Numbered from the stretch's first letter, positions 1 to 64,000 are shown. The stretch: DNA of 64,000 nt from Phoronis australis (GCA_002633005.1 NMRA01000435.1:248001-312000); one strand, 5' to 3'. Program-made: numbers and translations. The notes: a model not told the origin generated them from the letters alone.

Positions 1-3000
1 GAGGATTAGGAGTAGGACACATAGACTTTTGGAAAATGATCATAACCCACGGTTCACAGTGTCGCAAATGTTATACCTGCATGTGCCTTCCATATAAGTA
101 CCCCCCGGCCCGGCCTGGACCTCCCCCCATGGGAAACAATACTCAGTCATAAAAAGACAAGTACAACAGCTCTCTACAACTTCCAGAGCAAATACAACTA
201 GAAAGAGTAAACATGCAATGTTAAACAAATCTGAAGGCTGTTACCAACCACTTCAGATCAGTTATGGTAGTACTCCACTGTCACTTAATAGCCATTTTTC
301 AATTTTTCAAAGGCTGATTATTTTACTGCAAATGACCAAAAATTACTAAAAGTTGTGTTATGACATCTACACAGTACAAACCATGCTGGTAATAGCCTAA
401 AATTTTCCTAATCTTTCTTTTTGAGGAGAAATTTGATAAAATAGAATTTCACTTGTCTGCCATATTGGACATCAATTAAGGGTAATTACAGTACCTGTCA
501 ATTATATGCACAAAAGTGACTGCGCGGGGGGGGGGGGGGCNGGGGGTGACCTCAACCAAGGTCTACCTTCACCATTGATGAGTAATTCAGGACAGCACAG
601 GTGTGGTAAATAACAAATTAATCAACAGGTTAATCGACTGATAATAGCAGACCATTCAGGAGCCTGCGATGCAGGTTAACTGTAGCACCACAAACACTGT
701 CCAGACTAGTCGAAATAAAAAAACACCACAAAGACCTTAAGCTTGCAGGTCGATTTACAAATGAGACGGATCCTAAAACTCTAGCCAGTATTCATGATTT
801 GAAATGCAGTATAGATAAAAAGATTATCTTTGAATTGCCTTAGGTTTTCTCAATCTTGCCTAAGAAAAAACTTGGTTATCATTTTGTGATGCCTATTAAA
901 CAGTCAGCACTTCTCTCAACCAACATGGACATCAACAAAAACAATGTTTACTGCTTGAAATGATCATGACCAGTAATCTTCAGTTTGTCGATTTAGAGTA
1001 TCAGATTACACTACCATACCGACCCCGTTTGCACACATTTGCCAGCGACAAAAATCCTCAAATTCGACATAATCGCCGGTGATCTTATAATTCCAATCTA
1101 GCAAAGGTCATCAAATTTGCAGAAATACTCAGAATTTCGCCAACTTTTATTTGAAGGCAACTGCACAGAACACACTATCAACTAAAATGCTTAAATCTGT
1201 ATTTTGCTGAAAAATTCAACAACATGAAATTTCACTGACGGTAAAAATTCTCCAATTTAGGACAGTGAAAAATTACTTATTTTGCTCAAGGTCAGAGCTT
1301 TTCCCAAATTCTAGAAATACACAATATCAAGAATCATCTGAAAGACAACAAAATTACCCACTCTGTAGATTGAAAACGCATAGACTGAAATTTGAGAAAT
1401 ATGAGAACGCTAAAATCGCTTTCGTGATCGTCCCAGTTATCTAGACCGAAGAACATTCAATTTTTGCGAGAATTTCCGTGTCTCAAGTTCTAGAGACAGT
1501 TTCACGGTGGAGAATTTTTACAGGGTATATCATATCATACTTTGGATTAAACTGAAGAAGCTGTATAGTGTGCAAAGGCATGGAGGAACTCTACCATTAC
1601 TTTCCTATGCTCAAGAAGACAGTCAGGACTGTCAATGTTGGTTTACTCAGACAGTCATCAGATAAGCCTATTACAAGTATAATAACCTGATGGCTGATGG
1701 AGAAACCTGGCAGCATGCCAGCCCCACGCCAGCAGGTCTGGTTAACCACACTAAAATTGAGTCGATCAGTCAGCGCAGGAAAGAGATGCAATTTTTGCAA
1801 AGATTGTACCAAGCGTTTGGTATCTGGCTGATGTAAAAATCATGTTTTACTTTTTTATGTGATGGGTGTGTTGATGCGTGTGTCCGGTGATATTTTGTTT
1901 TTGCACGCTATAGCAAAGACAGCAGGGTCTTAAGGATAACATTCCAAAGTTGATAGACAGAGTAAAACAGAATAGAAATGCTGGCTAAGTGATGCATGCG
2001 GCTTACAACCCCTCCAGAGATAAACAAACATTGGCCCTAAAAAATAATTGCCAAATATTGTCACTTCTTCATCAAGATGTCAGACATTGCCTGATGGCAG
2101 CTGACGCACAGCAGTTCAAAATAACAAAACATCAAATAAGAAGGTATCTTTACGAAACATTGAAGACAATCACTTGTCTGCTGTATTGTGTCCTGGTGAG
2201 ATTTTACCTTACCTAGACAGTCTTCTAGGTTGCAATATAGAATATTCACACAAACATCCAATGATCAGTCCAGTTTTGTGGTATGAGCAGAACCAAGAGT
2301 TGTAGAAGGGGAGGTGTGATTCTCTTACGCGTAATGGTCATGGTGGGTGTGAATTTGAGAGCTACCAGGAAAATGGTTGCCCAAGATAAATAGCAATTAA
2401 TGATGAAAATATACCAGCCATTTCTTTTGATTAGCCACAAAATGACGCCACCAGCAACGCAAAGCCAAAATAACCACCACAGGTAACAACTTGGAGACCC
2501 CAATACTCGTAAAACTTGGCGGTATGTCCCTAACAAACCCTCCCCCTGGTGGTGAGCATACCCCTGATTATTCAGTATTCTCCTCAACGTTTCCCCTCTC
2601 CCACATCAAAAGCAGACAGCTCCATGAAGAGAACACAAGACCGAAAGTAACATTGAGTTCTTCGGCTGACTATGCGCGATAATACCCACATGCGATGAGT
2701 TTTCTGTTGAATAATTTCTCCTGAAGAGCTGGGGGCTTTCAGGTTACTCAATAACTGGGTTCTTGACCTCAGCCATTTATGATAGTGATTAACCGATTTC
2801 TTGACTGTGTTTGGTTAGCCAACTAGGTGTTGAAGGTTTCAAAGCTAGTTTGGATCCGAAAAAGCCGCAGCAGTGAAGATGTGGAAAAGACACCCAACAA
2901 AATTTACAGCATGAACATGTTGAGAGCAATGTATGACATAATGTTCAAAGCCCTAGCATGTTCAGGGTTGGGTTACATATCGCACACAACAGGAATGATT

Positions 3001-4040
3001 TGGTGTGATTTGATAGCTGGTATGTGGGGTATCCAACATATAACTTTTACGCAAAACTCCCCCTCACGGGCTTACAACATAGGTAGACGTACAGGTAATA
3101 GATCTTTCAAAACTTCACTGGATTCTCTTCCTAAAATAAACGAGCAGCAATAAAGTGCCAAAATTCATGACGACAAACTGCTTACAACGGCTGAAAGTAA
3201 CTAACCCGCCACAACAAGAAAAGTTCACAAACGCGGTAATAAGCAATAACGAACTATCAGCTCTTTTACACTAAGAAAAGCATAAGAAGAACTCCGTTTC
3301 ATTACAGTAATTATGTCAAGCCTAAATCAAAAGCCGTTCTCCATGAAGAGGTATAGAGGTTTTTGTTGCAACCCGTGAAACAACAATTTTGCTGAGCAAG
3401 AACCAGGAGGGGAGGAGAATTGATGCAAGCTCGAGAAATTGGGCTTTTAATATACATTCATTTTAAGAGAAGTTAGACTGGTTTACTTGACTTGATTGTT
3501 GGCAACCTTTTCAACTTCTTGTAATTAAATCTCTCATGTGTACAATGCTGTACAGCAACAGACTTCTGCATTGATGACATCCAAGTAAAATCTGATCTTG
3601 GCATAATAAATACCCTTGTCACCTGTCCAGTGTGAATAGCCTTTTTACTCTAACCTCATCCTAAATATTCCTATTGGTGAAAGTTCAACTTGACACCATA
3701 TTGCAAATGTTTCTAACCAACGATCAAACCACTGTTTACCTTCGCTCATTCATTCGTAACACACGACATAATTTCCCACACCAGTTGTGACGTTTTTAAA
3801 CTTTGCCCAATTAACATTAACTAACAATTAGGCCACTGAGACTGGCAGCTGCCATGGACTATGAAGTCATTCATAACCCTCGCAAAGTATCCAACCATGA
3901 TACACACCTAGTGGTCACTATGACAGAAACTTTCTGAAGCAGGCATACACTGATGTTCATCACCATTTCACTAAATTCATGAACATAAACACCTCAATGA
4001 CTCTGTGCACATCCGTTAGTACGTAGTAACACCAGCATTT

Positions 4041-4260
4041 TACCGTAAACTCGCGGGTTAATGCCCATGCCCGGGTGATCGCCCATCCCCGACTTTTGAT
4101 CAATTTTCGGTTTACAAGCACCCATTGCTTGGGTAATTGCCCATCCCCGACTTTTTGCCAAGTTTTCGGTTTAAGCGCCCACTTCTTGGGTAATCGCCAA
4201 CACCCTGTCTCAGGGTTTCCAAATTTAAGCGCCCAGGGCGTAAACCTGCGAGTTTTCGGA
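4041..4260. mobile_element. MITE-like non-autonomous DNA transposon with internal repeats of about 60 bp
   Basis: Imperfect terminal inverted repeats taccgtaaactcgcgggttaatgccc and gggcgtaaacctgcgagttttcggaa. Three internal gggt(g/a)atcgcccatccccgac...aagcgccc units. Confidence 0.65.
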
Positions 4261-7200
4261 AATTTATAGCATGATAGGATAAAAATAAAGTCAAACTTTC
4301 ATCACTATAAAGTTCAATTATCTCTGTACTATAGATATTACTGTGCTGACCTGGGTTATCGCCCATATTCAGGTGAATGCTCGCTCACAAAATTTGCAAA
4401 TTTTCTTATGGCCAAATACTCCCCTCATGTCCTTTTGAACTCCTATCTCACCCAAAATTTAGATTCCAAAATGTACCAAAGTTTGCCCGCTAGTCCAGAA
4501 ACGAACAATCAACTGAGTTTTAAAGTCACCTCGCCTTGTTCGGGTAGGAAAATACCTGTAAGACTATAATCTACTATAATTCGTGTTTTATTTGATACTT
4601 GCTTGTCGGTTCAATGTGTTGGCCTGAATTGACCTTTCAGGTAAAATCTTTTTTGAATACTTACGCACGGCTTATACAAGTTGACTAAAAATCAGTAAAG
4701 TATGTTTGTTTGTTACTCCATCAAAAACTATAAATTTTCTTGAGTTTAATACCACAGTTTTCACAGGTGACAATTTTAATCTAGCTACGAATAAAACACA
4801 TTGGCTACTGGGACTCATTCCAATCCCCCGCAAATATGAACTTATGCTCCCAGTCAAGACAGACTAACACAGGCGTCATTTCCTGGAATCAGCAGATCTC
4901 AGAATGATACCTTTCTTCACCAATGAATAGCTCAGCATGAAGCAAACTTCTCACAATATTGAGATAGGTAGTTCATGTCAAAAGCTGAACTCAGTGGGAC
5001 CAGGTAAAGAGAGGTCAAACACTATGGTACAAGACAAAAGTAATGAAGACAAATCACTGTTTCCAGGTCATGACTGTTAATTTTGTTTACAGCACAAAAT
5101 GACTGGTAACAACTATTATGGCTGAGGAAAATTCTAATTACAGAACAACTTAACCACCTAACTATCTCTCCTGTTTATTCAATGTCATTCTCAGTCATGA
5201 GGGGAGACTACTCTGAATTTGACTTTTACACAGCCACAGTGACAGGGAATATTAAGGATCATTTTGTCAGAATGCTTTTGGCATGCATTGTATATATCAA
5301 CAATAAATCACTGGCCTTAGTGCCAACTGATCATGCATGTCTAAAATTGTATGGGGGAAGCTTGGAAATCAATACAATCAGCATGTGTGGCTTGATAGAT
5401 ATTCTTCTCCCATGCTTCTAAACCACACATATGCTCAGTTACTGACTGACCAGTGAAGTTGTATTACCACCTTCAGAGGTTTATTGTGGTCGGAGAATAT
5501 CTATATACAGAGGTAATTTTAGGAGCATGCCCCAAGCTATTGGCACATAAAAAATTTTATTTAACTCGGGCCAAACGACACGCTAAAACCGAGTCGAAAA
5601 TCACGCCTCATTTCACCCTGCCACTAGAGTGTACACGCATTGCATTTAAATCATATCCCAAATGACAATGCAGACCAATAAATATTATTTACATACTTGT
5701 TACCTGTCTATTGCAGACCCGTCAATATATTTTTTCACAATGTCTGTCACCAGACAACAAACTCAAGGTCAGTTTTAGGGGTTCAAGCTTACCTGCGTTC
5801 CATACTCACAAGACACGAGAATGAAAAGTTAGTGTATGTAATCACGTGTCTCTCTTGTAATGCATTGCGATATCTTGCTAGTTTCTTGCGTCTACGAAAT
5901 ACAGTCATTGAACGAAGAAAAAATGATGAGGAGGCTCAAACTCCAAATTCAAATTTCGTTCCATTTCCGGTACAGGGAACAATTACTTTTGCCAAAATCC
6001 CACGCTGTCACTATCAAAGTTTCGCCATTGACGCACATTATTGGGAGGCATCTATTCCCTCCAGATAATTACTTCCTACAGCTCAATGCAAAAATACAGA
6101 TCCCAACTGTTTGGTTCAATTGAAATGCGGTTTGCCTCTGCCACAGTAATGCACTGGGATACCAGACAAAATCTTGAGCAAAAGATGCCACTCAAAAAAA
6201 TTAAATCGGAAAAGAGCATTAAAACAACCCACAGGTCTTCTAAATTAACCTAGATAGATTTGTGGCCATGTGACTCAATTGGCCCAAAATGATCCCAGGG
6301 CACATGACAAAGATGTTGACAGGTGAAGGCAAGACTTTTTACTAATTAAATGTTTACAGATCAAGTGGCATAATGACAGTTTAAAGTCTACTTTTATCAT
6401 TGGCAAGACGCCCCCTTATGCCTCAGAGACATAAACACTATGATAATAAACAACCTAAAACCCCCAGATCTGAAGGAAGTAGGATTTCACAAGGCAAAGG
6501 TTAAAATCTGCACTTAACATCATTCTTGTTTCTGACTGCATAATTCAAATTATGTTAATATATGCTAATGTGTTGGTAGCCCAGATAGCACCTGCATGTT
6601 ATCACCACCTCTGACGCAAAAACAGACCGACAAAATTACAACAGGTCATAAAGTCATAACGCATGAAGTGACCAAGCTCAAAATTCTCTCAAAAACATTT
6701 AACGGCATTCTCCATCATATCGCCTCTGTCCAATGACTTCACCCAATATCTTAAGTAGCTAAATAGAAGTGTAAAAAACTGGAGATTGCCAAACAGATAT
6801 CAAGTACGGTAAGCCTTCCCTAAAGCTGAATGATGAATGCGATTAGTTTGCAGACAGAAAATGTACTCAGTTAAAACCGACAAGTATTCTTTTGAGGGAT
6901 TACTGCTGATGGAACGGGCTTCTTGAGAGAATGGAGAGCTTGTTATGACGCTGCTTCACCGACGATTATCTACTTCTGTAAATTGCGAGGTGTAACTTTT
7001 GAATATGACACGTTCCATTCACAATGTCTAAGAATTATCCGCGACAAGCGACAGGGGGTGGAACTGCTCAGATATGTTAGATGAGGGCCGTGAGAAATCG
7101 GATACGATGCCTTGAGGCTCGCCAGTTAGCTTTTGTTGTTCAGTGGGTGTTAGTTTCATGCAATAAATTTTAACCCGCAAGTAAACGAGGACCAACTAAG

Positions 7201-8731
7201 AGAATAAATTACCAGAGCCCAGCCACAAACACTAACCATCTCATGGATGTCAGAAGTATTCACTCATTTCGTCTACTTTTATGAAGTCGAATATTGGTCC
7301 AACAAATCACTTGCATGTCATCCAAAAAAAAACAACGATCTACTTTACAAAGAACAGTTATTCCCAGTAAAACTGACCCAAGAGTCCACGATAATTTTTC
7401 TGTCGAAACATCAAATATGCAATCGTCCCCTGATAACCCGTGCCATGAAAATTTCATGGTCAGATACAGAAGGTGTTTATGGTCACTTCACAAATACCCT
7501 ATAATTCATTGGTCAACACAGTACATCTACCCATTCAATACACAAGGGATCAAAATCAATGAATCACATGCAACAATAGATGTGTACTCCACCAGGTGAC
7601 TACACTGGTAGAACCACTCATTAAATATCAGACACCAATATTCAAACTGTTTCAACAATTAAGAAGCATAGCTCAAGCCCACCATGTTTAAGATGGGGAT
7701 AGATCTACTTCAGAGCAGTGACCTCAGAATGTAACCAGAGCCTTGTTATTAAATGACCAGTCACTTAAACTATTAAATATCAAAAGAGAAGTATGATGCG
7801 GAAAATAGGTCTGCTATTAGTGTAAATTTATATCCCACAAGGTCAGGAAATGAGTTTCGCATGTTGAACTCTGTACAAGAACAAGCCGCCCTTGTTGTGG
7901 ATACACTAGGTACTAACAAGTGCAACATCAGAATGGCATCGGTGTATTTCTTATACCAGGTTCACATGCTAACTAACGCTGCTAGTGTTATCACTATTAG
8001 CAAAACATTGTACTGTGAACGGTCGCAAGGGCCACTTTTGCTAGAGGTTTGTACTCCAAAATTACTGGAGTTTTCACCAGCATTTTCATAGCCAGACTGC
8101 TTACTTCAAAAGACTCACATGCGCAGGGATAAGGGACTTTGTTTTATCGACACGACGGGAGAGAATGAGAGTATTTTGAAATCAATTTTCACTTAAAAGT
8201 GAATCAAGTAGCGAGGAACTAACTGCGGGCGAAGATGACCCCATTACAGACAGCTCGTCTGTTCGGTTAAAATGCTAGCATTTTCGCTATCATTTTAGCC
8301 AGCGAAACTGATAGCATTTTCGACACACATTTGAACCTAGTGAGAGATACTGTCTGCATGAATGGCTAGAGACATGTTGCAATGTCTGATAGCAAACAGA
8401 AATATGAACCGTTTCCTTTATGCTGTAATAATCCAGGAAGTTCTTACTGTGCAATGGGCAAGCTATTACCCTACTTTATTTAGAACTTACTGGCAATATG
8501 GATTGTATTCATTCAGGAAATGCGTACTGTAATCCTGACATGATATGTGAAACTTTGATTTACCCCAAGTGACAAATACTACAACTATAGACAGAATGGA
8601 CCTTGACATTGAATCATTTGGCAAAGCAATAAAAATAACCGTTGAAGCCTCTTGATTTCTGTAAAGCGTTTTAGCAACAAGAAAGATTTCTAAGACAGAA
8701 ATAGTCAAACCTCGCAAAACAAGCAACCAAC

Positions 8732-9667
8732 TCAAGTGAAGAATGAAACAAGTTTGAAGTACGTACCGACAAGAGCAACTAGCTTTTGTGCTGTCAACTT
8801 TTCTTGTATCTGATGCATGAGTTCTTGTCTGGGATAGTAGTATGCAACGGGTTTGGGTAAATGTCTGATCACGGTATTATCTGGTGGCCTCACTTTGGTC
8901 ATGTTGAATGTGATTGGATGACCACTCTTCGGAGGGGACATCAGTAAAGTCTCTTCATCCTCTGGTCGACCCTCGCTCAGAAACACGGGAAAGCTGCGTT
9001 TCAACGACCTGTCCCTGTAGGCTTTATACACGATGTACACGATATCCACAAGGGCAATGAGCACGGCGAAGAGTGCAAATAGGAACATCAGGCTCAGATA
9101 GGCCATCTTGCCCGACGGCTTTGGGACGATGCACGGGTAAAACTTTGTGTCAGTCATATTGACGGAGATCTGCAGAGTGTGTGTGCAATTATATACATTA
9201 GGAACATAAAACCCATAATATTTTGTTTGCAGAACCAGCGAGGCAATCTCAAAGGAGATTCGCACAACTGTCTGTATGATGTAACCGACCATGATGCGTG
9301 TGATGATAGATCGCAGGCGATTCTTGTGAGTGTTAACCTGGTACTTAGCATAGGCTGTGTACAGGATCCATGTGATCGCCACAGCGCACGCGAACCCTAT
9401 CCAGAATAACATGTGTGGCACGGGCCAATAGAAGGCATCGTAGCAGTAATGGCGGTCGACAGTGGTCTCCTTGTGTGGGATGTCACAGCGGAGCAAGTCG
9501 CCATCGTAGACCGCCAGAATGGCGATGAAGAGGAGGATGAACCGGACGACAACGAAGGCAAGAACCTGCGCCTCGCCCAGGTACGTGATCACCTCCGGGT
9601 GGAAGAAATGTGTCACCGTTGTGCTTCTGAACAGTGTTGGCATCCTGACGGGTGATGACCGTTTCAT
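8732..9667 (-). CDS. Connexin-like four-transmembrane protein with C-terminal STAND/NB-ARC-like pre-P-loop segment
   Basis: Acceptor ttggCAG|G starts the exon at 9677, with ATG at 9667. The translation aligns by eye to the connexin pattern: ITYLGEAQVLAFVVVRFILL (cf. ST.GK.WL..LFIFRIL), CYDAFYWPVPHMLFW (cf. CYD..FPISH.R.W), YIIQTVVRISFEIASLVLQTKYYGF (cf. Y...I..K..FEV.F...Q..LYGF), and CIVPKPSGKMAYLSLMF (cf. CF.SRPTEKTIF..FM). A phase-1 donor G|GTACGT follows LVALVG at 8767. Read-through stops at 8732, giving 311 aa. Confidence 0.8.
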   Translation of the reverse strand: MKRSSPVRMPTLFRSTTVTHFFHPEVITYLGEAQVLAFVVVRFILLFIAILAVYDGDLLRCDIPHKETTVDRHYCYDAFYWPVPHMLFWIGFACAVAITWILYTAYAKYQVNTHKNRLRSIITRIMVGYIIQTVVRISFEIASLVLQTKYYGFYVPNVYNCTHTLQISVNMTDTKFYPCIVPKPSGKMAYLSLMFLFALFAVLIALVDIVYIVYKAYRDRSLKRSFPVFLSEGRPEDEETLLMSPPKSGHPITFNMTKVRPPDNTVIRHLPKPVAYYYPRQELMHQIQEKLTAQKLVALVGTYFKLVSFFT

Positions 9668-12600
9668 GCTGGCCAACCTGCCAATAGAACACAACTGTAT
9701 AGTACAGGTAATATAATAATACAATATAACATACGATAATTTTTAACATATTTAGTACATAATATGACAGACAAGTAAAATTACATTTTGTCAAATTTCT
9801 CCACATAAGTTAATATTAAGAACATTTTAGTCTATTACAAGCATGGTTTGTAGTGTGTAACACCATTTGGTAAATATTCCGTAATAGCAAGGTAACACAA
9901 GCTAATCAGCCTTTGAAAAATGGACAACGGGTCATTTTCGCAATTACTCATGTGCAAAATAAGAGAGAAATACCGTAACAGAAATACACACACATGAAAT
10001 CTCATATCGTACACGCCAATATGGCATTTTAGCAATATAAGAGAAAACCCATTGGTTACAATGTTACATGAATGCACTACACAAATTAAATCGTCAATAC
10101 TCAAATTTTACCAGTACATATTTGCAAAACATTAGAAGTGATAATTAAGGTCGCGACAACCAAACACCTGATTTTATATCTAAGGCTAACATTGCTGATT
10201 CAGTAGATTCCTAAAAAGTTAGGCTCTATTCATAGTCATCTTAATTTTTTTGATTAGCACTCTTGTACAGGCACAGGTCCTCAGTCACCAAATATTCGCT
10301 GAGAGTACTGCTCACAGACCAAATACTAGTTACTGCTGTTCTGAATTAAATGTTCTAGATGCCTTAGGGCATGAATTCAAAATTGGAATTCTTTGGCAAT
10401 TGTAACTTTATCAAGGAATCTAATGACAAAAGAACAGACCAGATAAAACTAAATATAAGGTTTACCTAAAACAAGCTTTCAAAGAATACTACTGTAGAGT
10501 GTCTACCCGTGACATGCAAAGCGTTTTAGATTTTTTACACCGTAGTTGTTAACTAAATGTAAATTGTAATGAAATTTACTTCACTTGCATTGATCGTATA
10601 ATTGGGAGCTTCTGTGCATAGCTTCCAGGGTCAGTAAAATATAGTTGATCCCAGATTGTGAACAAGTTTCCTGCTCATTACTACTGGAAGAAACTGGTTC
10701 TCAGGATATGGGACAACCATGTTTTACCAGTACTAGACTACAGCATCGGGGTAACACCTCTTGTTGACATATTGCTTTACAAGTTACAAAGTTGCAATAT
10801 ACAGTGGCCTAACAAAGGTAAACTTCATCCCAACAATGAATAACATGGCAATCACACATTTTTAGCCATCTAAATTATCTGGACTGGACACCTTTGTCAA
10901 ATTTTTTTTTTAACTTCGGAATTGAAAAATTTATCTTCAAATTTAATTAACGATACCTGAAATTACATATTTCCCAGAATCGCCTCATACATCTTGGAGC
11001 TAAACGTTATTCATAATCTCAACCCATTGAATTAGTCCAAAGAAATACATTTGAAAATTTTGAAGGAGTTGAAATGATTTAAATACTTTACAACGTTGGA
11101 AGTACAGTAAATCTGACTTCCTGATAAGTTAGGTGACTAAAATACAAGATTACAAAATAATGCAATCTCAAACAGATTTAGCAATGGTTTGCTTTCAAGG
11201 CCAAGTATCTGATGAATGCAATTGTTTCATAAATTGAAATGGACAGTTTGAAGTGGAAGTTGAAAGCATTCCACTCTCAAGTTTACAAGGAATAGAAACT
11301 GACACAGACTGTACGAGTCTTAACATGGCCCTGCATAACTGAGGATTTAAGGAACACCAGCTGTTATCTTTGCCATCATCTAGTCTAGCATGAATCTTTG
11401 GCAAGACACCACGATTTACAAAACGTCTCTTGGTGGCTTTTGATAGTGAAATTTGCCACAGTTAGGGCCATTGTCACTGGAATTAACAGGGAGACCCGTC
11501 ACTGCAACCTGGTTAGACTTTGAAACCTAGAAGACGAACAGCGAAGCATGACATAGACTACGGTGACGGCGCGAAACATCGGAGCCTAAGTCCGAATAAT
11601 CCAAAGTCATTGAGAAAAGCACACAAAATTGATCGCGATTACCGACACTCACCAAGGCTATTTTCTAATCTTCACACGCTTGAACGCAGAAGCTGTCAAC
11701 CACCGATACATGATCACGTAGGCATGGTCATGAATAAAGCGAAATAAAGAATAAAACAGAGGGGCAAAAGTCCACCTCAATCATATATATCGAGACTGCG
11801 TCGCTTTGCACCTTTTCTACCTCTCACTAGCAAGAGTTCAAATGCCCGAAAACTACAATCGTGCCATCTATTGAGCCAATGGCGATTTCAGTCCGAATTC
11901 CTTTTGATGCCTTTTAATAAGCGAAACGTGACAAGTATTGGAAGTTGGGGTTTATAAGGCTGTTTTGCAACATAGCATGCACTTATGTACACTGCTTGCT
12001 TATCGAAAGCGCACATTCCAATTCCCAAGTGCTTCAGTAGAAATTTGATCGTGATCTTCATTGGGATAAAGACGAAATGCTTTCACGTGAATAATCTTCC
12101 ATTTACTGAAGAAAACAACTTCACTTCGTTTCGGTGTTAAGCAATGAAACTGCTTATGAGAAGTAGAATTTACCTCAAACTTCAGCACCAAATGAGGACA
12201 ATTTTATTTCATAAACTTTCAAATGATGCTCTTTCCGGCTAATTACATCTGCATTTATGCACCAAGAAGAAAGCAATTCATCATTACCACAAAATCGTAA
12301 TATAATTTCAGAACATCCCATTATTTCTTAGACATTCCAGCATAGGGTAAACTCGATTGCACTCTCCCACGCGCGCACCCAGGGGGCTCGGCAGACCATC
12401 TTATAGCCATCTTTCCTCCACGTCCTCATTTTGCTAGCTTTTGTAATTAAATTATTGTTTTTATTTACATATTCATATAAGTGCTTATTTATGCATCTAT
12501 AAATCATTTAGTATTCTTCGGCAGTAGTGCCTCTCTGCTGCATTATTTAATTAATTTTACAGATACTAAACCTGCTATAGGGCAGAACACATCGATCGTG

Positions 12601-15239
12601 CATTTTCAGTTTATTTTTTACTTGATGTCTGGTCTTATTTGTAGTGTTTATTTTTAGTTTATACCCTTTACTGTCTCTGTCAGTATTGGTGCAGTGTCCT
12701 ATTGTATTGTATTGTATTAAATCAGTCCATCAACATACAGTAATGTGGTTTTATAGCTAACTGAAAGTCAAACTTTTAGTTAAATTAGACACAGGGAAAA
12801 ATCACCAATTTTAGATTTTTGTTTCCACCAGAAACACGGTCTCTATTGAAAGCCAACCAAATACATCAACCACAGGGATCAAAACATCATTTTTAAATAA
12901 TCAAAGCACACATGTCTTCATAATAACAAATTTATTATTCATTGAAATGTCAAAACAAAAGAGTAGCATATTTTGTATAAAAGTAAAATACACAATTGGT
13001 AACAAGCATCACTGAACGTGCAAACGGAGGTCCAAAATGAAAAGACACATTACTGTTGAACAGCGTGATAACAATGAATGACTGTTACCCCATTATAAAA
13101 TAAGTACATCTTTATTTGTCCTGTGATTTCAGTATACATAAAGTAGAGGCCACTTAGTGTCATACAAGATATTAGAAAATTTCCGTTATGTCAAAAATGA
13201 ATCACTTCTCATTAAATCCATGTAAAATCACCCGCATAATGTCATGAATTATTGTCTAACAACAGCAAATTAATTCTCACCCTCTTATTAGCAAATACAC
13301 CTTCGTTTTTCTACCTAAAAACCAAACCAAATCATCTTCAATTCAACTGCCTTATGGGAACTTGGCACGGGGTTAAAATCGGTTGTTTCCTGTTTAGCAG
13401 TCTTACACTCATAATATACATGTACATCAAACCAAATTATGAAGTTAAGCTGACTCCACAGTACCTGGTCGGGTCTGTAAGGATACTTATGTAAAATCTC
13501 ATTCAAACAAACTAAAACAAAACTGTAATAACCGTTGAAGCTAAAATGCAGACAACACAATTTGGCTGAAAACACAATACATTGGTTTTCATCAGCACTG
13601 CTTTCACTTGAATTACTGGGTTAATCAACTACCATGATAGCAAATCTATTTAATGGAATGTTGACACTAAATACGAGAGACACGTAATAATGAAGACAGA
13701 TTACCGCCTCACTACAAGCTATAAGTCCCAGAATGGTACGTAATAACAGACCAACAGCGTTAAAAGGATACCAAACTTGGTTTTGGCCTATTAACAGATG
13801 TTCATAGCGGCTTTACCATCCAGTTTTCTCAAACAAATTAATGCCCTGTAACCCTCTACAGTGCTAAAAATTTTGGAACAAAATTTGAAAACTCCTTATA
13901 AAGACTGCTAAATGGGGAAGTGTGATCTATGCTTCAGGCGAGTTACACAACTGCAGGGACAGACTTCTGACCAACAACCACAATATCCGACCTGTGACTC
14001 GAAGTGTAGAAGTTGTCAGTTGAATCCTGCCGTTATTACTCAAGTGGTAAGCCAATGATTCATTAACAGGAGACAGAACAAGGATTTAGTATCTGTAAAA
14101 TTGAACTCTAACTTCAAAATCTAAATAGTTACAGAACAAACTTCCTACTAGGCGCTCTTTATTTATTTTCACATATCAACTACAAATATTTGGATAGCTA
14201 ATCCTACTTTCTTAAACACCATGTTCCATTACTATAAATTCCCGCTAAGGCCTTATATTTGAATATGGACTTGATAATCGAGCATAAAGCCACATAATGC
14301 AATTCTGTAGCGTGACTGTTCAGAGCATCCAGCACACTTACTCAGGACAGACGAAATTCTTAAGCAAACTGCAAGTCTTTGTTAGGCAGATGACGTAATG
14401 TCACGCCCGTAAACATTAAGCTGATGGCATTAAACTAAAAGCTGCCTCATGAACTGATAACTTTGTTTTCACGTTTTTGCTCTTTTGACGTTCTAATCTG
14501 TTTAAACCGTTAATAACAGCATGTCCAATTTACAGTCCGTAAAGTTGCATCACCGCCATTTTGCATATTATGTAACTTAAAAACATAAGATACAGTATAT
14601 AAAAAATACTCACCTATGGTTCGCCCTAACTTGAACAAAATCTACAATTAATACACTTTTAGTTTTACTGGTTGTTTCCACGAACAGGTATCAACGATCA
14701 GACAATAGTCATCTGGTTGAATAATTCGACTTTGCAAGTAAGAAGAATAATTCAATATCAAAAATACTGACATATTTATTGTCCAACGGATATTGCATAG
14801 TATATAGACAACTTTGAAACATTATTGGTTGACGTGTGTCACGTTATCATTTATCCTATTTATAAAATTGTTTAGACATTTTTATACACATAATTCACCT
14901 TAAAACACCTTAATTACCTAATTAAAATACAATGGCACAAAATGATTCCATCTTGCAATTCAAAAATGTAATAAAAAGATGACTCAGCCTATGCACATAA
15001 TCAAAAACTGTGAATCAAACTCCTTGTGGTTGACTTTGCAACAATGGTACCAGTTTCGAGTAAATTTGAAAAGGAATGAATTACATTTATTAATTTTATT
15101 ATTAATCTTATCTGATCCGACAAAAATTAACACTATTCAACATTCCATTTGTTCTGAAGATTGTCTTCAAAGATTTCTCAACCAACAAACAAAAACAAAA
15201 TCCTTCCCCTTTTGTAACGCAGATGCAATGGCCTTGACC

Positions 15240-21200: not shown

Positions 21201-21659
21201 TTACCTTGCTACTTTACAATTACATCACCTCTTGAAACACATGTTTAGTGAAGTTTTCTCCTCAGATTCAAACTAAAATGATGGCCAAAATTGGCAATTT
21301 TTTATTTTTCAAAAGGTACCACCAAAAATGTTCAAATTTCAACGTGTGTTTGTTGATGACAGCTGTATTATGTAAAGTTTTGAAATAATCAAGTAAGCTT
21401 GCCTTCTCGATTACACTTGTTGAAAATTTGGATAAAATAAAATTCCACGTTGCACCTTATTGTGTTCTAACTTATAACTCTATTTTATTAAAGCATAAAA
21501 ATGTTTCCAGGTGATTAGTTCAACGGGCCCATCTGAGTGGCTTGCTCATGTCTGGTACAATGTGCACCAGACTGCCATGCTGTAGACTAGCATATGGCTA
21601 AAGCATGTTTTATATCTATTGTATTTTATCCTCAATAAATAAAGTCTATTATTATTCTT

Positions 21660-21721
<62 letters not shown>

Positions 21722-24700
21722 TATTATTTTTATTATTATTATTACTGCCTCCAACTACATACTTCACTTAGTGTTGGAATTAAAAAAAAAACAAATTTGA
21801 TGAGGTAATTACAGCCTGCTGTCAAGCTTTGTCAGAAATCGTCATCCAAATGTCTTCGCAGATGAATCTTTTTTGCAGAGAATATCGTCTCTACCCATAA
21901 AATGCTCTTTTCAAATAGGGCATGGAAATCACCACAGCTTATCCAGACTGTAGTTGGAGTTTCACAGTACAGTCGTGTATGGTAATACAATATCAAGCCA
22001 ACCCCAAGCATATCCATAAACTTTTGACTGACCAGCTTATTACCATGGATACAGTGTAAACAGAGCTGCTGAAACAGCAGACAGTCTGGCAACCATGGAA
22101 ACCCCTGTTCATCAAAGACTAGATCTCAGACCAGCCTCAGTTCCCAGTGGTACATATAATTAAACCACAGCAGTCACCGTGACAACACCAACAGCATACC
22201 ATAACCCAAACTGAGGACTGGCAGATGCTATTAGGCATGACTGGTGGAGCAAGTGACCCATAAAAATATCTGATCCATCAGCAAGTACATCCGTTGAGGC
22301 CTGAGAGTTAAGTGTAGTGCATTCCAACCTGACATCAATATTATATATGTATTTCATCTCCACTTTGCCAGTAGCAGCCAAGTGAAGACCATTCTCAGAC
22401 AGTCTGAATACTGGATAAAGTTGGCTGTAACTTTTGATGATGCTGCCAGTCTAAAAGGTAAGCTTTGGGTGACAACTAGCAGTAATTATTTGTGATTTTT
22501 GTCCAATGGTTTACATAGGTTTGATGGCAATAGTCTATTAAAGGGGTCCCGCATTTTGGGAACCTGAGTTCTCTGCACTGAACAAACTGGTTCTCAAAAT
22601 CTGGGACGGCTGTAAGTGACTATCGCTGGTCTGGCAATAAAATGATTTTAAATATCGTTTGCTACAATAAAGTAGTAAAAATGTAGTAAAAAAGCAGTTA
22701 AACGGTAAAACATGTATAAAAAGGGTCAAGATGTGTCATGCTTTCANGTGTTCTAACTCTATTTTATTAAAGCATAAAAATGTTTCCAGGTGATTAGTTC
22801 AACGGGCCCACCTGAATGGCCTGCTCACGTCTGGTACAATGTGCACCAGTCTGCCATGCTGTAGACTAGCATATGGCTAAAGCATGTTTTATATCTATTG
22901 TACTTTATCCTCAATAAATAAAGTCTATTATTATTCTTATTATCATCATCATCATCATCATTATTATTTTTATCATTATTATTATTATTACTGCCTCCAA
23001 CTACATACTTCACTTAGTGTTGGAATTAAAAAAAACAATTTGATGAGGTAATTACAGCCTGCTGTCAAGCTTTGTCAGAAATCGTCATTCAAATGTCTTC
23101 GCAGATAAGTCTTTTTTGCAGAGAAGATTGTCTCTACCCATAAAATGCTCTTTTCAAATAGGGCATGGAAATGACCACAGCTTATCCAGACTGTAGTTGG
23201 AGTTTCACTACAGTCATGTACGGTAATACAATATCAAGCCAACCCCAAGCATATCCATAAACTTTTGACTGACCAGCTTATTACCATGGATACAGTGTAA
23301 ACAGAGCTGCTGAAACAGCAGACAGTCTGGCAACCATGGAAACCCCTGTTCATCAAAGACTAGATCTCAGACACAGCCTCAGTTCCCAGTGGTACATATA
23401 ATTAAACCACAGCAGTCACCGTGACAACACCAACAGCATACCATAACCCAAACTGAGGACTGGCAGATGCTATTAGGCATGACTGGTGGAGCAAGTGACC
23501 CATAAAAATATCTGATCCATCAGCAAGTACATCCGTTGAGGTCTGAGAGGGGAGTGTAGTGCATTCCAGTGTGACATCAATATTATGTATTTCATCTCCA
23601 CTTTGCCAGTAGCAGCGAAGTGAAGACCATTCTCAGACAGTCTGAATACAGGATAAAGTTGGCTGTAATTTTTGATGACGCTGCCGAGTCTAAAAGGTAA
23701 GCTTTGGGTGACAACTAGCAGTAATTATTTGTGATTTTTGTCCAATGGTTACATAGGTTTGATGGTAATAGTCTATTAAAGGGGTCCCGCATTTTGGGAA
23801 CCAGTTCTCTGCACTGAACAAACTGGTTCTCAAAATCTGGGACGGCTGTAAGTGACTATCGCTTGTCTGGCAATAAAATGATTTTAAATATCGTTTGCTA
23901 CAATAAAGTAGTAAAAATGTAGTAAAAAAGCAGTTAAACGGTAAAACATGTATAAAAAGGGTCAAGATGTGTCATGCTTTCAGACTCCTTCAGTGGCCAA
24001 TGGTAAAGTAAAGTGGCTAGGGAGAGGGAAATTGGGCTATGGGTCCACAGACCATTGTCGTCTCCATAATAGAAAGCAGGGTATTCGGATCTGTCTGAAC
24101 AAAGTCCTCATCTGTTGCCACGTTCAAAGGAAAATGCTTGCCAAATTTCACAAAGTTCCTCCAATAGGTTTTGGAGATACTCTTGGAGATGCAAAAACAG
24201 TCACTAGTTGAACCCATAAAAATCAATGTCAGTCGTGGTCTTCTCAGTAGGAATGAACACATCTGCCAAATTCCACAATGAACCTATGAATGGAGATTGG
24301 TAATTAATGAAAGTGGTTCCAAGGTAGTGTAGAATAAGTCGAATAAGCCCGAAAATGGAAAGGCATCGTTGTCTCCTCAATAGAAATCCATTTGTCAAAC
24401 TTTATGAAAATTCATCATGAAACTCTGAAAGTACAGAGGCAACTTAAAATAGAAAAATTGCCATTAAAAGGCACTAGGGTGTGCAAAACCACTCAAAAAC
24501 TCAGTGTCGTTCGTTTTCAGCTCCATATGAACTAAATTTCACGTAGATACTCCAAGGGGTATTAGAGATACAACTGCTGCCACCTGACGGACGTCCAGAA
24601 ATCATAGTAATGGCAGTAAGCCCCGACATAACGTACATTTTGACACTATATAAAAATAAATTAACTTGAGTTCTTAACTCTGTAAATACAAAGTTAAGTG

Positions 24701-27700
24701 TAAAACAGGATAATAAAACATGAAGATTAAGAACAATGTTTACTACAAATAATTAAAATGGCCACCAAACTATGCATCATGGGATTGTTAGCCGATCAAT
24801 AAATAGACAATCTAGCTTTGCAGCTCTATTTTGCATTGCCTGACCTTTTAAACTAGAAGTTATTCAGACGTGACCGATACAGTGTCAAAGGGAAGACCAA
24901 CTACGGACAAATAAATCAAAAGTTATGTATTTATCAAATAATCATTTGTGACAAAAGCCTGTGACATTTGTCAGGAAGGTTGATCACACAAGATTGAGGC
25001 TACTGTTTTATAGGTAACTCTGTTGTGTGTGAACATGTAATTATGCTTTATGTCAAGATCGTATATGCATAAACTTGGAATTAAATATTTATTAAAAAAA
25101 TAAGATGAAACTCTAAGTCTTTGTTCAGTGAAAATTATTTTTGTAATTATTGGCTTCATGATCACCCATTTTTTCCCTAACCGGAACTTGTGGAATAGGA
25201 GGAATGTGTGAATGGTTAATCAATTATTGCTTTCGTAAATAAAATCGTCATTAGTAGACAGAAGCCAACAAAGGTTGGTTAAAATCAACATTATTTTATC
25301 AACAGGTGATTTGCTTCAGTGCAGTGCAAATTTATATCAACAAGAACATGATTATTTGAGTTAACTTGCCAAGTTTTCTCTGGTATTCAGAGTTCATGCA
25401 GAATTCCAAGTTCGAGCACAACAATTCATCCATCACCTTCAACAAGCATGAATACCTGAGGAATCAACACACCACACCATACTTCAAACATCATTCAGTA
25501 CAACTATTTAATCGACTTTTTTCAGGTGGGGACAGAGGCACTGGACTATGCATAGAACCAACTGTGTTCACCATTGTGTTTATAGACAGGTGTAATAAAC
25601 ACACAGCAACACTCATTGGATGTAAGCAAGCCATTGAAAAACTTCTACAGGCACAATAGTTGGCTTTCTACCAGTCTGTTTACATGAAACACAGATGGGA
25701 TTGACCATTTCATGAAGAGGATTGGCTGCCAGTATTAATGTGCAACAAGATCTTAAAAACTTGCAATAAAGATAGTAGATTTCAGGACAAATGAATTTCA
25801 GCTGTTGATGGCCTAGTAACAGAAGAAGTGTCTCTAAGCCAGGTAATGTTTTCCTAAAGAAATCTGGAGCAGAGAACAAAGAGCATCAACAAAGAGTGAA
25901 ACACAGTGTACTGTGTACTAGAATAACAAAGACAACAGCTGAAGGCCTGCCATGGACTTTCAATAATAGTCACTGGAGCAGTGTGGAGACACCTTAAGGA
26001 CCACAAATGGATAACAAGTAAGGAAAGAAAACAGCTTATGTAATACTGTTTTGTGCTCAACATACTGGAAGGTGGGTCTGCTCCTTAAATGCAGAAACAG
26101 ATACTGGTAAAAACTGATGTAGCATAAGTCCTGGCAACTAGAAATGATGAACAATAGAGGTGATAGTAAAACATTTTAACTGAGCTGGTAAATAATCAGA
26201 ATGAAGATAAGTTTGTTTGTTCATGGCGTTCTTTCTGTTGTCGCCACTAGCATGCTGGTTGGAAGGTGTGTTGGCCTCAAAATTCTGGTCTACCCATTTG
26301 GCATAACGAGGAACTCGCACTCGATTCACATGGAGAAAATGGCCGAACTGCTCGCTGAGAATGGTCACGACGTTCACGTCCTTGTCAGCGAAACGTACAC
26401 GTTGCCACACAGAATTCGTCAAGCTGGGGTCAAGATTATTGTGTTTAAGGTCAACACAACAGAGGTCTCTCAAGATCAAACAAGGTTTACTTCACTGGAT
26501 GCCTATTTGAGCATGTCACCTTTCAATCTGCTCAGTTTTGTAGTGAGAACGATGTACACGATCTGCGAAATGTTACTCCGTGACAACAAGAGTGTGTTGG
26601 AACGTTTGCACCACGAGACTTACGATCTCCTCATTTTCGACTCATTTGATAAATGTGTTGAAGCAATCAGTAGCTATCTCGACAGACCACTGATATCATA
26701 CCACAGTCAGGGTCTAAGCAAAGTTAAAAATCCGGACATTCCCGAACCGAGGTCATACATTCCACTTCACCTCACGGATTACACGGATCAGATGACATTC
26801 TATGAGAGGATGGTGAACGATTTGAAGGGGCTGATGATGATCCCAGTCAGAACAGTCATATACTCGTTTTTCAATTCACTCGCTAGTAAATACAGTATTG
26901 AAGTGAAGGACAAGGAAATTATGAGATTCATCTACGACGATTTCGCGGTTGCGTTTTTGCAACCAATCATGCCTGATATGGTGCTCATGGGTGGAGCCTT
27001 TATTGAGCCACCGAGCCCATTGTCGACAGAGCTTGAGTCCTTTGTTCAGAGTTCTGGAGATAACGGAGTAGTCGTTTTCAGTTTTGGCTCCATTTTGAAA
27101 GACTACGGCGTTAAGTGGACGGAAGTATTTGCCGAAGCTTTCGCCCGCCTACCGCAGAAGGTGTTGTGGCGATATAGCGGTAAACCACCAAGAAATCTTG
27201 GCGCCAACACAAAGCTAGCATCATGGCTGCCTCAGACTGATCTCTTAGCTCATCCAAAGACGAGAGCGTTCATTACTCATTGCGGAATGAACAGCGCCTA
27301 TGAAGCGGCGTTCTTTGGAATACCAGTGGTGGCGCTGCCGTTAGGAGCCGATCAGCCGCACCAAGCAACCAAATTATGTGACCACCACAAGATGGGGGTA
27401 AAACTCGACCTCAGGAGCATGACCATACAGTCACTTATTGACGCTACACAGAACGTAATCAGTAACCCCAAATATAAGGAAAATGCTATGATTGTTTCGA
27501 GACGTTTTCAAGCTCATCAGCGTAGTGCAAAAGAGAAAATATTATTCTGGGTTGACTATGCAGGACACAACAACGGAAGTGATCACCTTATATCTAATGC
27601 TCGTAAACTGCCCTTGCACAAATACCTCTTACTGGACGTGTACACATTCTGCATTGTTGTCATCATTGCCGGCTTTTACGTAATTTACACCATATTGAAA

Positions 27701-30700
27701 TCTCTTTATAAGAAAGTGTGTTTGCGCAAAGCTCAGAAATCAGAGAGCAGAGATAAGAACGATTAAACGAGCAACTATCTCCGGAAACAGAATTCGTATT
27801 CAGTTAAAACAGTAATCAGTATTGCAATAGGTGTACAGAAAAAGAGACAACGAAAATTCAAGGTCGAAATAAGTTGAACGAATATTCCAAACTAAACGCA
27901 GCAGACACAAACAGTGCATTGACGAAGTCGTCTGCTTCTACTTCTTGAAGTCGTCTGCTTCTTGAGAGCCATATGCGGTTTTGTTTACAATAATAGCTGA
28001 TGAAGTCAAATCAATTTTATTCGCTTGTGTTTCCTGTTCACCTAATTAGTGAATTCCTATTACACCTGACTTGCGAATTCTTAATGATTAAATTATTCAT
28101 ATATGGAAGAATGTTTGACCACATCCAAGGTTTTTCCAAGGCAATGTCTCTGGTAACGTTTGTGCTGAGCATTTGCTCTCATGACAACAGCCACTCCCTA
28201 CACAGTTACAAATATTTACATTGAGGAAACCTCAGTTCACATTACAGAACACGTCTTATGGACAATAGATATTGCTAATGTAATAAACATTTGTTTTGCT
28301 TTTAATTCATTCCTTGATATGTCCTAAAACACAGTCTTGACTAATGTTCATGTTGAGGATCATTTGCTGAGACTTCATGGCCATGAACAAAGTCCTACAA
28401 AGACCAGTGGTACAGTTCAACAGAACTAGGGGATTAACATATCAAACATTCAGAAAAATATGGAATTTCTGTCAATAGCAAACACCGACCAAGCAGGTAA
28501 AAGCATTCACCAGTGAAAACATATCATTCACAATAATTACAAACAACTCATTGTCTGGATTTAAACCTCATAAATGACAGATTTGGTTTCTCTTAAAAGG
28601 GAATTACAGAAATGCGGTAAAACCTCATCAATTAAGAATATCTCTTACTGAAGGAAATAACATTCTGTTCTGTGGTTAACGGGAAAATAACTCAAATTAA
28701 ATTTCTTACTGGCATAGTAACATTTTGCTCAGCAACAATGAATTTTGTGTCAAAATACGTTTCCACGGATTTGTTGTGCAAAAGTCCAAGGTGCAAAAAC
28801 CACTGCTCTAAACATTCACACACAAACTTATCTTACTAAAGCAAAGCAACAGCGTGATTAGTGAAAATGTTATTGGCACTTTCATGGTAGGCATTTTTTG
28901 GGTCACCCTGTATCCAACAAAAGAACATCACAAAAAAGTCCAACAACAGGTAATCAAAACGAAATGACATACCATCTTGAAGAAGACAAGTATAAAGCAA
29001 CACGTGTTAATAAAAACAAGATTTTTCAACTTCAACATGTCTCAAACATCATAATCAGGACAAGCAATCAAGGCCATTTACAATCTTGACCCACACAGTG
29101 CTCAACTGGCTCAAGCTAAATAACTAAATAAGCAGCTAGTGCACATTTGTTGCTACGATGCTTGCTGATAGCTCTACAGAACACCATGTGGGTCAAGATT
29201 GCTAGATAGCCTTGGTTGATTGTCCTGATGATGAAGTTTGAGACATCGAAACTTGTTGAATGACATACCTTTAGAAACTGAACGTACGCTTGGTTGGGAT
29301 CTGTTAGTCTCATGCCATTCAGTTCTATGTATTGAAACTTGGGAATCTCTTGAGCCTCGTACGACTCCTGCAAGCATCTGATAACTTCGTGGACGGTAGC
29401 CGTCTTGCCAGTGCCAGGCACACCAGAGATGTACATACACCTGTGACACGAGAGGGATGGTATTATATGGGAGTGACACCAGTATCAGGATGTTGCTGGC
29501 TACACCTGTGACATGAGAGGGATGGTATTATATGGGAGTGACACCAGTATCAGGATATTGCTGGCTACACCTGTGACATGAGACGGGTGGTATTATACGG
29601 GAAAGACACCAGTATCAGGATATTGCTGGCTATAGAATTGTGTGCAAGTGTGTAAGCACATCCCCAGAAATAACTTTCGCATACATTCATTAGTGAGACG
29701 GAGCTCAGAAGAGCAGTAGACACCTTTGTGCAATGCTCAATTGTCTGCCAGTAAAGTTAAGATTCGAAACTGAGTCTCCCTCACAGGAGTCCGAAGCTCA
29801 AACCCTTGGGCCACACTGTCTCCTCAAGTGATCAAGTACAGTACATAGTAAAAGTGATCAGACAAAATACTGTTTTACCGGCAAGATGACTAATTCTGTG
29901 AACAGGAAAATGGCTGGTAATGACTGTTATTGGCGCAAAATTCTAATCATAGAATAGCGTAGTTACTGTATTAACTGTCCTCGAAAATGACCTTCATGAT
30001 CAGTCATGAGGGAAGACTTACTTTGATGATAAATTCAGCTTCAGCCCAGCCATCATGATGAGGAATTCTGGGTAATTTTGTCTGAATACTTTTGGATTGT
30101 ACTGTAAATTGCACCACTAGCATGATGGGACTCATTGACATAATTGCAGAAGTAAAACATGAAAGAACGATCAGAACTGACCCAAGTTTATTGACGATTA
30201 AGACTGATTTTTGCACGTTTCGTCACATTCAGTACATTTTCATCAAGAGGGATGACTACCATTCTAAAAAAATCAACAATATTTTTCTTCTCGTTGAAAA
30301 TCAGCGAAATTTAAAGCTGCAAAAATTTGTGGCCGAATATCAAAATAATTCAAATGTCTTCTGGGTAATTTCGACAGTCAGACAAGCTTTGACACAACCT
30401 CTCTTTGGAAACTAGTGCTCCAGTTTTAACTACAGGACTACTAACCTACCACTTCCAAGGGAACCATGCGTAAGTCTGAGGCTGTACTAAACACAACAAG
30501 TAGGACTGTGCACTGTTTTTTCACATGACTGACATCTGTTGTAATGAATATCAGGGGCCGCGATCTAAACTTTCCACTTGAAATCAAACTCCAAATTATT
30601 TTTAACACTTCTGTCTTACTATGGACCGTACGAACTCAAGATCTGTGCTCGGGTATATTTTAGTTTAGTTGGATGACTTTGTAATTCTATTTTGCACATA

Positions 30701-46600: not shown

Positions 46601-47133
46601 GCAGCAGGTCACGTGAGAGGCGACACAAGTCAAGGTCACCACATGATCACAGCAGGAGGCATGACGAGGATGACAGGTGACTATTTAATATAAATAGTTG
46701 TCTTTTCATTGTCTGTATCATTGTATACTTCCCAATGTCAAGTCCTGCTCAGTATTTTGGAAGGCAACTTTTTTAAATTTCAGTTCTGGTTGTGTTCAGG
46801 CATGAATGAACGAATTTTAACCTAATTAATATGTATTGCCTTTGATATATACTAGGAAATCAGATTGTAAAGAACAGTCAAATTATCTGAATCTTATTGA
46901 TTTCACAAATCTTTTGATGAGAAAAAGTTGGGTTATTCTGTGTTCTATTGTCTATTTTCAGAAAACGAAGCCACAAAAGTAAGAAAAGTAAACATGATCA
47001 CAGGGACCGAGAGAGAGATGAACATAGGTCAAAGGACAAATCTAAGAAAGACAAGTACTACAGTGAGGACCCGGAGATTGCTGAGGCCAACGCTCTACGG
47101 AAGAAACTCGGACTAGCTCCTTTACAGGAATAA
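40631..47133 (+). CDS. PRPF38A: Pre-mRNA splicing factor 38A; 8 coding exons, about 331 aa
   Basis: Phase-consistent exons: 40631-40760, 42254-42413, 42710-42831, 44316-44401, 44590-44694, 45993-46096, 46560-46676, 46962-47133 (total 996 nt). Motifs: MANRTVKDAHTVKGTNPQYLVEKITRSRIYESKYWKEQCF, PFLCLILKMLQIQPEKDI, YVRALGALYMRLTG, HMDEYIDELLREERVCDIILPR, and an RS-rich tail. Confidence 0.96.
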
Positions 47134-63522: not shown

Positions 63523-64000
63523 CTGTCAACAAGGCACTTATTCTATACATAACTGCCATTCACGATAAATGTTTGACAAAACAACAAAAAATACAATTTC
63601 CAAACTATTGAAAGTATGAATTTGGACTAAAGGAAACAGAAACAATAACTAGGCATTCCCTATCATGACGGCCACTATGTTTGGCACATAATCTCTAACC
63701 TTCACATTAAAATTATTATTTTGCAAGTGAAAACCTGCACGATTAAAAAAATTCTGTGAGTTTAAATTTCAATCATAAGACGCCATGATACATGAAAAAT
63801 AAAAATTTCAATTTCAAAACACGTTAAACTAAAAAACGTCATTAGCAACTCAGCTCGTGATGTTGCTATGCAGTCGGAACAGTCGACTTTCCCCCAACAG
63901 ACAACGGATTTTTCAACTTGGCTGATTTTGCTTCAAGAACACTGACAACTTTAAAGTTAATTTCGACCGATTTTAAACGAGAAATAAATACTCAAGATTA

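Follow-up and report, generated by a model that had tools for sequence, protein, structure and literature searches.

A divergent connexin-like gene of Phoronis australis whose coding exon probably continues into a STAND NTPase of likely NB-ARC class

The connexin-like gene described here lies on the minus strand of a stretch of 64,000 nucleotides from Phoronis australis (GCA_002633005.1, NMRA01000435.1:248001-312000), which is called the window throughout and has a GC content of about 38%. Directly upstream, on the same strand, is ORC1 (15250-39400), a large exon of which (32176-33390, minus strand) contains a tandem internal duplication of about 130 low-complexity residues. An intronless gene for a UDP-glucuronosyltransferase of 524 amino acids (26192-27766, plus strand) is located on the opposite strand inside a 9.5-kb ORC1 intron, and a tandem duplication of about 1.2 kb, seen as repeated translations, lies inside the long ORC1 intron (21549-23971). 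Exons of PRPF38A (44240-47133, plus strand) are arranged head to head with ORC1, and these two genes are presumably neighbours in human as well. Further along, the minus strand carries exons from the 3' end of BIRC6 (52400-63525), which encode, among other parts, the UBC domain. The features of the connexin-like gene itself are collected in Table 1.

Table 1. Features of the connexin-like gene, in window coordinates
Feature	Position	Strand	Basis
5' exon without coding sequence; its 3' end (11653) is exact and its 5' end approximate	11653..12142	-	RNA junction and strand-specific depth
Intron 1, GT..AG, 1975 bases, within the 5' UTR	9678..11652	-	Junction reads: 4, 5 and 4 in runs X1-X3
Coding exon: 10 UTR bases, residues 1-300, first base of Gly301	8767..9677	-	Translation and RNA junction
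Connexin-like domain, about residues 24-225, four helices	8993..9598	-	Pfam, PDB, alignment, low-confidence model
Pair of putative sequons for N-glycosylation, Asn160 and Asn170, both in extracellular loop 2	9152..9190	-	Sequence
Start of a STAND NTPase, likely NB-ARC, with run-in helix and first strand (residues 259-301), ending at the first Walker A Gly	8767..8893	-	In-register alignment to Owenia CAH1778566 and paralogues
Phase-1 splice donor GTACGT	8761..8766	-	Donor scoring, base composition; acceptor absent from 1-8766
Continuation of the frame past the donor, in the presumed intron, for 10 residues up to a stop; unlike the Walker A of the relatives	8732..8766	-	Translation, tail comparison
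AATAAA/ATTAAA signal, the sole one within 3 kb downstream of the donor	8475..8480	-	Motif search

The open reading frame of 311 codons (9667-8732, minus strand) translates to the protein that the original prediction quoted. The start of the coding exon is given by RNA reads that span from 11653 to 9677, and since an in-frame stop precedes the ATG by five codons, Met1, or else Met9, is the start of the protein. The 5' leader contains several upstream ATGs and short ORFs, one of them in frame, 17 codons long and ending five codons before the start; these upstream ORFs could dampen translation. The RNA data come from three Phoronis australis runs (X1-X3), about 18-19% of each mapped onto window positions 1-14000. 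Between 8407 and 9340, the three runs contain first mates on the plus strand only, which in most stranded libraries signifies minus-strand RNA. The reads show that the connexin-like gene is transcribed and that its 5' exon is spliced. At position 8784, all covering reads (13, 5 and 12 in the three runs) differ from the assembly and change Lys295 to Arg, which is likely an allelic difference.

The connexin-like domain of four helices that had been predicted for this exon is borne out by profile and structure-database searches. The 311-residue protein matches the Pfam Connexin family (PF00029) with 54.5 bits, against a gathering score of 31.3 (E 1.8e-14), and in the PDB it has 24 matches with an E of 10 or less, every one of them a gap-junction protein, the best being Cx43 (E 1.1e-10) with an alignment that spans TM1 to TM4. 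Four long helices are present in a single-sequence model of low confidence (pLDDT 52), and the hydropathy profile has three peaks over 1.6; fold searches with this poor model were uninformative, and the ESM Atlas gave no usable match for the protein. Each extracellular loop contains two Cys (61/75 and 161/179), all four being invariant or nearly so in an alignment of 42 rows. Together with Tyr129, Glu140, Trp89 and Gly152, they are residues of vertebrate connexins that are kept here. Canonical vertebrate gap-junction connexins have three Cys per extracellular loop, a feature from which the protein departs with its two. The combination of a connexin-like sequence, two Cys per loop and a domain on one exon is that of the invertebrate connexin-like (CxL) proteins. 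The Lys-hydrophobic consensus for the CO2 carbamylation motif, taken from a recent preprint (bioRxiv 10.64898/2026.06.13.731801), has no match in the protein, which is a weak test as the pattern also missed the Owenia protein P0002. Metagenome scans with a protein and a DNA pattern found no locus like this one. Word-based searches among proteins of 171-545 and of 546-2000 residues gave no match to the protein, and no identical sequence was found among the database proteins. In all, this is a real, expressed and divergent connexin-like gene.

An exhaustive search of 1.84 billion representatives with the protein yielded 44 matches with an E of 0.001 or less, of which none reached 1e-10. A Connexin domain is present in each of the 26 matches that were scanned, accompanied in one by a RHIM and in one by a P-loop. 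Ten of the 44 are named: four, including the top match, are from Owenia fusiformis and six from vertebrates, with no anthozoan among them. The best non-vertebrate relatives are the Owenia fusiformis proteins. Phylogenetic trees place the connexin domain next to the Owenia group on a long branch, separate from the ten canonical vertebrate rows. Support is 82-99 in the quick trees. One quick tree was made from a set of 48 rows, with P0017 and P0049 left aside; other trees comprise 21, 19, 13 and 19 chosen rows, and in the careful 19-row tree, in which no anthozoan or Lingula rows were identified, the branch with six Owenia rows has a support of 81/53 and a grouping with GJE1 is not rejected (p-AU 0.30). 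The protein is not a close paralogue of the Owenia proteins.

The sole P-loop protein among the 26 scanned matches is CAH1778566.1 (P0014) of Owenia fusiformis, with a length of 983 amino acids. It was found through its connexin part (query residues 115-229) and not through the tail of the query, by which is meant the stretch that the original prediction had read as the run-in to the Walker A motif of a STAND NTPase. That reading is upheld: BLASTP aligns residues 101-301 with residues 1-176 of CAH1778566.1 (27% identity, E 3e-17), in register from TM2 to the Gly that is split by the splice donor, after which the Owenia protein continues GPPGSGKT. The tail alone scores 55 against CAH1778566.1, shuffles scoring 28.4 +/- 4.1 with none of 2000 as good, and its match to the run-in of this protein ranks first of 3510 six-frame window peptides. 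An hhalign comparison with six Owenia proteins extends from TM3 to the same Gly (97%). Further Owenia proteins, four of them from 7997 scored candidates and a fifth from a cluster, share an RPP motif and the run-in.

The match is strong to one Owenia run-in only, the five run-ins ranking the window ORF 1, 3, 278, 38 and 2 of 3510 peptides. A profile of the five sequences gives E 2.6 against the ORF, and the tail is absent from the top 12 of a profile of the full Owenia NTPase-TPR region. The tail is identified by a homologue and not by a family profile. One could imagine that the likeness is due to chance and that the exon splices into another domain or none, given that no family profile recognises the tail and that two of the five run-ins match it poorly; against this, 0 or 1 of 2000 shuffles reach the score at six tail lengths, and the match stands at the expected place in a connexin-homologous protein, which makes chance highly improbable.

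The Owenia P-loop connexin-like proteins (CAH1778566.1, CAH1797686.1, CAH1797688.1, CAH1798091.1 and CAH1798092.1) share with the protein from the window a connexin domain with two Cys per loop, the RPP motif, the run-in helix and the first strand as far as the Walker A Gly, and the order of these elements agrees. They are 25-30% identical to it; its linker of 122 residues is 30 residues longer than theirs (91-92), its sequons are in loop 2 while those of Owenia are in loop 1, and its long branch lies outside their group. One partial Owenia model starts inside the Walker A motif and the next accession is a connexin-only partial model; this pair hints at an exon boundary in the Walker A, three codons later than in the gene from the window. 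In the paralogue CAH1797688.1 (P0046), Glu replaces the last Gly of the Walker A, and in CAH1779526.1 (P0006) a RHIM tail takes the place of the NTPase, a remnant of the run-in being kept in the alignment. Owenia connexin-like proteins with "P-loop NTPases" have already been mentioned (bioRxiv 10.64898/2026.06.13.731801).

The Walker A motif is complete in four of the five Owenia relatives that span it, and only its first Gly is visible in the gene from the window. After the connexin domain, the Owenia proteins have a Walker A, a Walker B, a PLGI motif and an MHN/MHD, the last two of which we take to be the GxP and MHD motifs of NB-ARC. A sensor strand and helical and winged-helix domains are likewise recognisable in these relatives. 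This region matches the bacterial NCBIfam model FxSxx_TPR with E-values of 8e-16, 2e-13 and 4e-18, at scores far below the cut-off of the model, and its neighbours in the ESM Atlas are NB-ARC-TPR clusters from bacteria and fungi, nine of ten structural rows having a TM of 0.54-0.66. A model of one Owenia protein (P0048) is confident only for the NTPase core and the last helices. The four top Foldseek matches of this core are NRC3, Dark (twice) and NRC2, the best having an E of 0.0013 and none reaching 0.001. With Z-scores of 11.0 for NRC2, 11.0 for Cdc6 and 10.6 for Dark, the fold matches of the modelled core would leave Cdc6/ORC, tied with NRC2, as an alternative for the Owenia NTPase. In the five Owenia proteins scanned, Pfam gives matches at the level of nSTAND3 and none to NB-ARC, NACHT or LRR, and PADLOC gives generic P-loop matches only. 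The Owenia NTPase parts are read here as divergent NB-ARC-TPR STANDs and not as NACHT-LRR. These relatives support NB-ARC, as originally proposed for the gene from the window, as its likely class; the tail alone has no match to a Pfam or NCBIfam model at E 10.

As had been predicted, a phase-1 donor (G/GTACGT, last exon base 8767) falls within the Gly codon. It is the best of nine GT sites scored within 100 bases, with six of nine consensus letters, and the T content rises across it from 0.22 to 0.47 (60 bases on each side). Donors of the GTAC type are also present at two ORC1 exon ends in the window. The mean RNA depth in the bin 8407-8873 amounts to 0.26, 0.29 and 0.29 of the depth at 8784 in the three runs. 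The expected ratio is 0.23 if the transcript is spliced at 8767, 0.30 if it ends at the stop and 0.90 if it is read through as far as the poly(A) signal at 8480. This ratio is a rough one, of a bin mean to one position, by which a splice (0.23) and an end near the stop (0.30) are inseparable; it argues against a normal read-through transcript and is no proof of a splice. The poly(A) signal could terminate a minor truncated isoform.

In the original prediction, no completion of the Walker A had been found in 1-8766, and the same result is obtained here: none of the 493 AG sites on the minus strand of this stretch completes the motif, and neither tblastn with nine Owenia proteins nor a profile of the Owenia NTPase-TPR region finds an NTPase exon in it. 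A downstream exon inside the window is ruled out by the acceptor scan, tblastn and profile taken together. A repeat insertion at the donor was likewise rejected, as the stretch from 5295 to 9728 is free of repeats when 1-14000 is compared with itself. The suggestion that the rest of the gene lies beyond the window, after an intron of over 8.7 kb, finds support nearby: the ORC1 exons that correspond to residues 58-116 and 112-153 of the human chain, one directly following the other, are about 9.5 kb apart, and an intron of this size is therefore ordinary at this locus. The intron after 8767 likely exceeds 8.7 kb, with the next exon beyond the window.

A different fate of the gene could be imagined, in which the downstream exons of a connexin-NB-ARC ancestor have been lost or are bypassed, leaving a stand-alone channel of 311 residues with a vestigial NTPase start. 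It would account for the 8.7 kb free of a downstream exon, for the lack of a listed RNA joint from 8767 within 1-14000 and for a frame that stays open for 10 codons past the donor, and it would have parallels in the short connexin-only models of Owenia (P0002 and P0010, both marked partial) and in the non-NLR connexin-like genes that have been reported (bioRxiv 10.64898/2026.06.13.731801). However, a joint to an exon beyond the mapped stretch could not have been listed, the RNA depth drops close to the donor instead of continuing as far as the sole poly(A) signal at 8480, and the homology ends exactly at the donor, where the composition becomes intron-like. Such a truncation is quite improbable, and with good confidence we expect exon 9677-8767 to splice into an NTPase, which would give a connexin-NB-ARC(-TPR) receptor.

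How such a receptor might work is a matter on which we lean, with some reserve, to a predicted hexameric hemichannel whose opening is tuned by the switch. The exon would be joined, outside the window, to sequence for an NB-ARC switch followed by TPR-like sensor repeats, resulting in a membrane-anchored receptor of immune type. This would form a plasma-membrane channel of six or seven subunits, as measured for related domains (bioRxiv 10.64898/2026.06.13.731801), and the two sequons in loop 2 suggest a hemichannel rather than a gap junction. A ligand at the TPR repeats would lead to ADP/ATP exchange, a ring of NB-ARC domains beneath the pore would rearrange, and the channel would be opened or biased, with ATP release or ion passage as a danger signal. 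A loop sequon is also present in Owenia CAH1779526.1 (P0006, 39.7 kDa), which by its mass seems to be the gap-junction-forming ofCxL40, and sequons are therefore no proof of hemichannel-only behaviour.

The original idea that the STAND module drives assembly of the pore is weakened by measurements on related proteins. Connexin-like domains, whether or not a NACHT is attached to them, assemble into channels that depolarisation or CO2 opens; this opening was not blocked by the NACHT fusions, and forms fused to NACHT, caspase or TIR gate much like unfused ones (bioRxiv 10.64898/2026.06.13.731801). As related domains need no help to assemble, the role of the switch would be to gate a channel already in place and not to build a pore in the manner of plant resistosomes. 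The same gating data suit a receptor that is made in full but in which the connexin ring is an anchor and pre-oligomerising scaffold for the STAND module, or in which signalling is reversed, the channel opening to voltage or CO2 independently. Owenia also places the domain before a RHIM (CAH1779526.1) and, according to the preprint, before STING, which fits such a role. Yet passages of two sources (PMC12803255; PMC4986451) describe the N-terminal domain of the tripartite STAND layout as the effector, these proteins have no other effector domain, and the gating data of the preprint cover no activation of a form that bears a sensor. A scaffold or reversed signalling thus seems rather unlikely, and the tuned hemichannel remains the preferred reading.

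The fusion as such is less new than the original prediction supposed. Connexins have long been regarded as restricted to chordates, as passages of PMC8769644 put it, but connexin-NACHT-LRR fusions are known in anthozoans (PMC3879445; bioRxiv 10.64898/2026.06.13.731801), and connexin-like domains have been placed in anthozoans, one annelid and one brachiopod (bioRxiv 10.64898/2026.06.13.731801). The terms "NB-ARC", "TPR" and "oligomer" are absent from the main text of the preprint, whose supplementary tables may name these domains, and no report of a connexin-NB-ARC fusion was found in the literature as judged by title or abstract. What is likely new is a divergent member, at most about 30% identical, outside the named species, and a second STAND class (NB-ARC-TPR). 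The gene thus adds a deeply divergent and expressed connexin-like member from another animal and points to this second class, which suggests that the connexin pore was recruited more than once as an effector of immunity and that it is more widespread in bilaterians than annotated proteomes show. It also provides a compact system for asking if connexin channels can be gated by a STAND switch. More tentatively, and with more doubt than credence, it could be imagined that connexin channels were coupled to STAND modules on two occasions, with NACHT-LRR as the partner in anthozoans and NB-ARC-TPR as the partner in a lineage of bilaterians that extends beyond Owenia, the sensor directly opening the channel in the latter. 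If true, an animal immune receptor would itself be a large-pore channel gated by its ligand, and the connexin ancestor would have a living model in it.

Among known systems, the anthozoan connexin-NLRs resemble the gene from the window in an N-terminal four-helix domain on one exon, two Cys per loop and a STAND fusion, which is likely in the latter. They combine NACHT with LRR and are mostly single-exon genes, whereas the relatives of the gene from the window have NB-ARC with TPR-like repeats and the gene itself has an intron in the Walker A. Vertebrate connexins (Cx43, Cx36 and GJE1/Cx23) share the PF00029 match and a gene layout in which a first exon without coding sequence precedes the single exon for the domain; the protein differs from them by its loop sequons and by two Cys per loop, as in the epsilon clade (bioRxiv 10.64898/2026.06.13.731801), and no scanned vertebrate match carries an NTPase. 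The nearest look-alikes of the Owenia region are the NB-ARC-TPR STAND receptors of fungi and bacteria, and in fungal NLRs NB-ARC with TPR is described as the preferred pairing in the passages of PMC4986451 on the subject. Plant CC-NLR resistosomes and fungal HeLo-type pore effectors would be alike in their working if the switch controls a membrane pore. Their effectors are soluble helix bundles that are inserted on activation, while the effector encoded in the window is of the integral four-helix, large-pore channel type, whose related domains assemble unaided.
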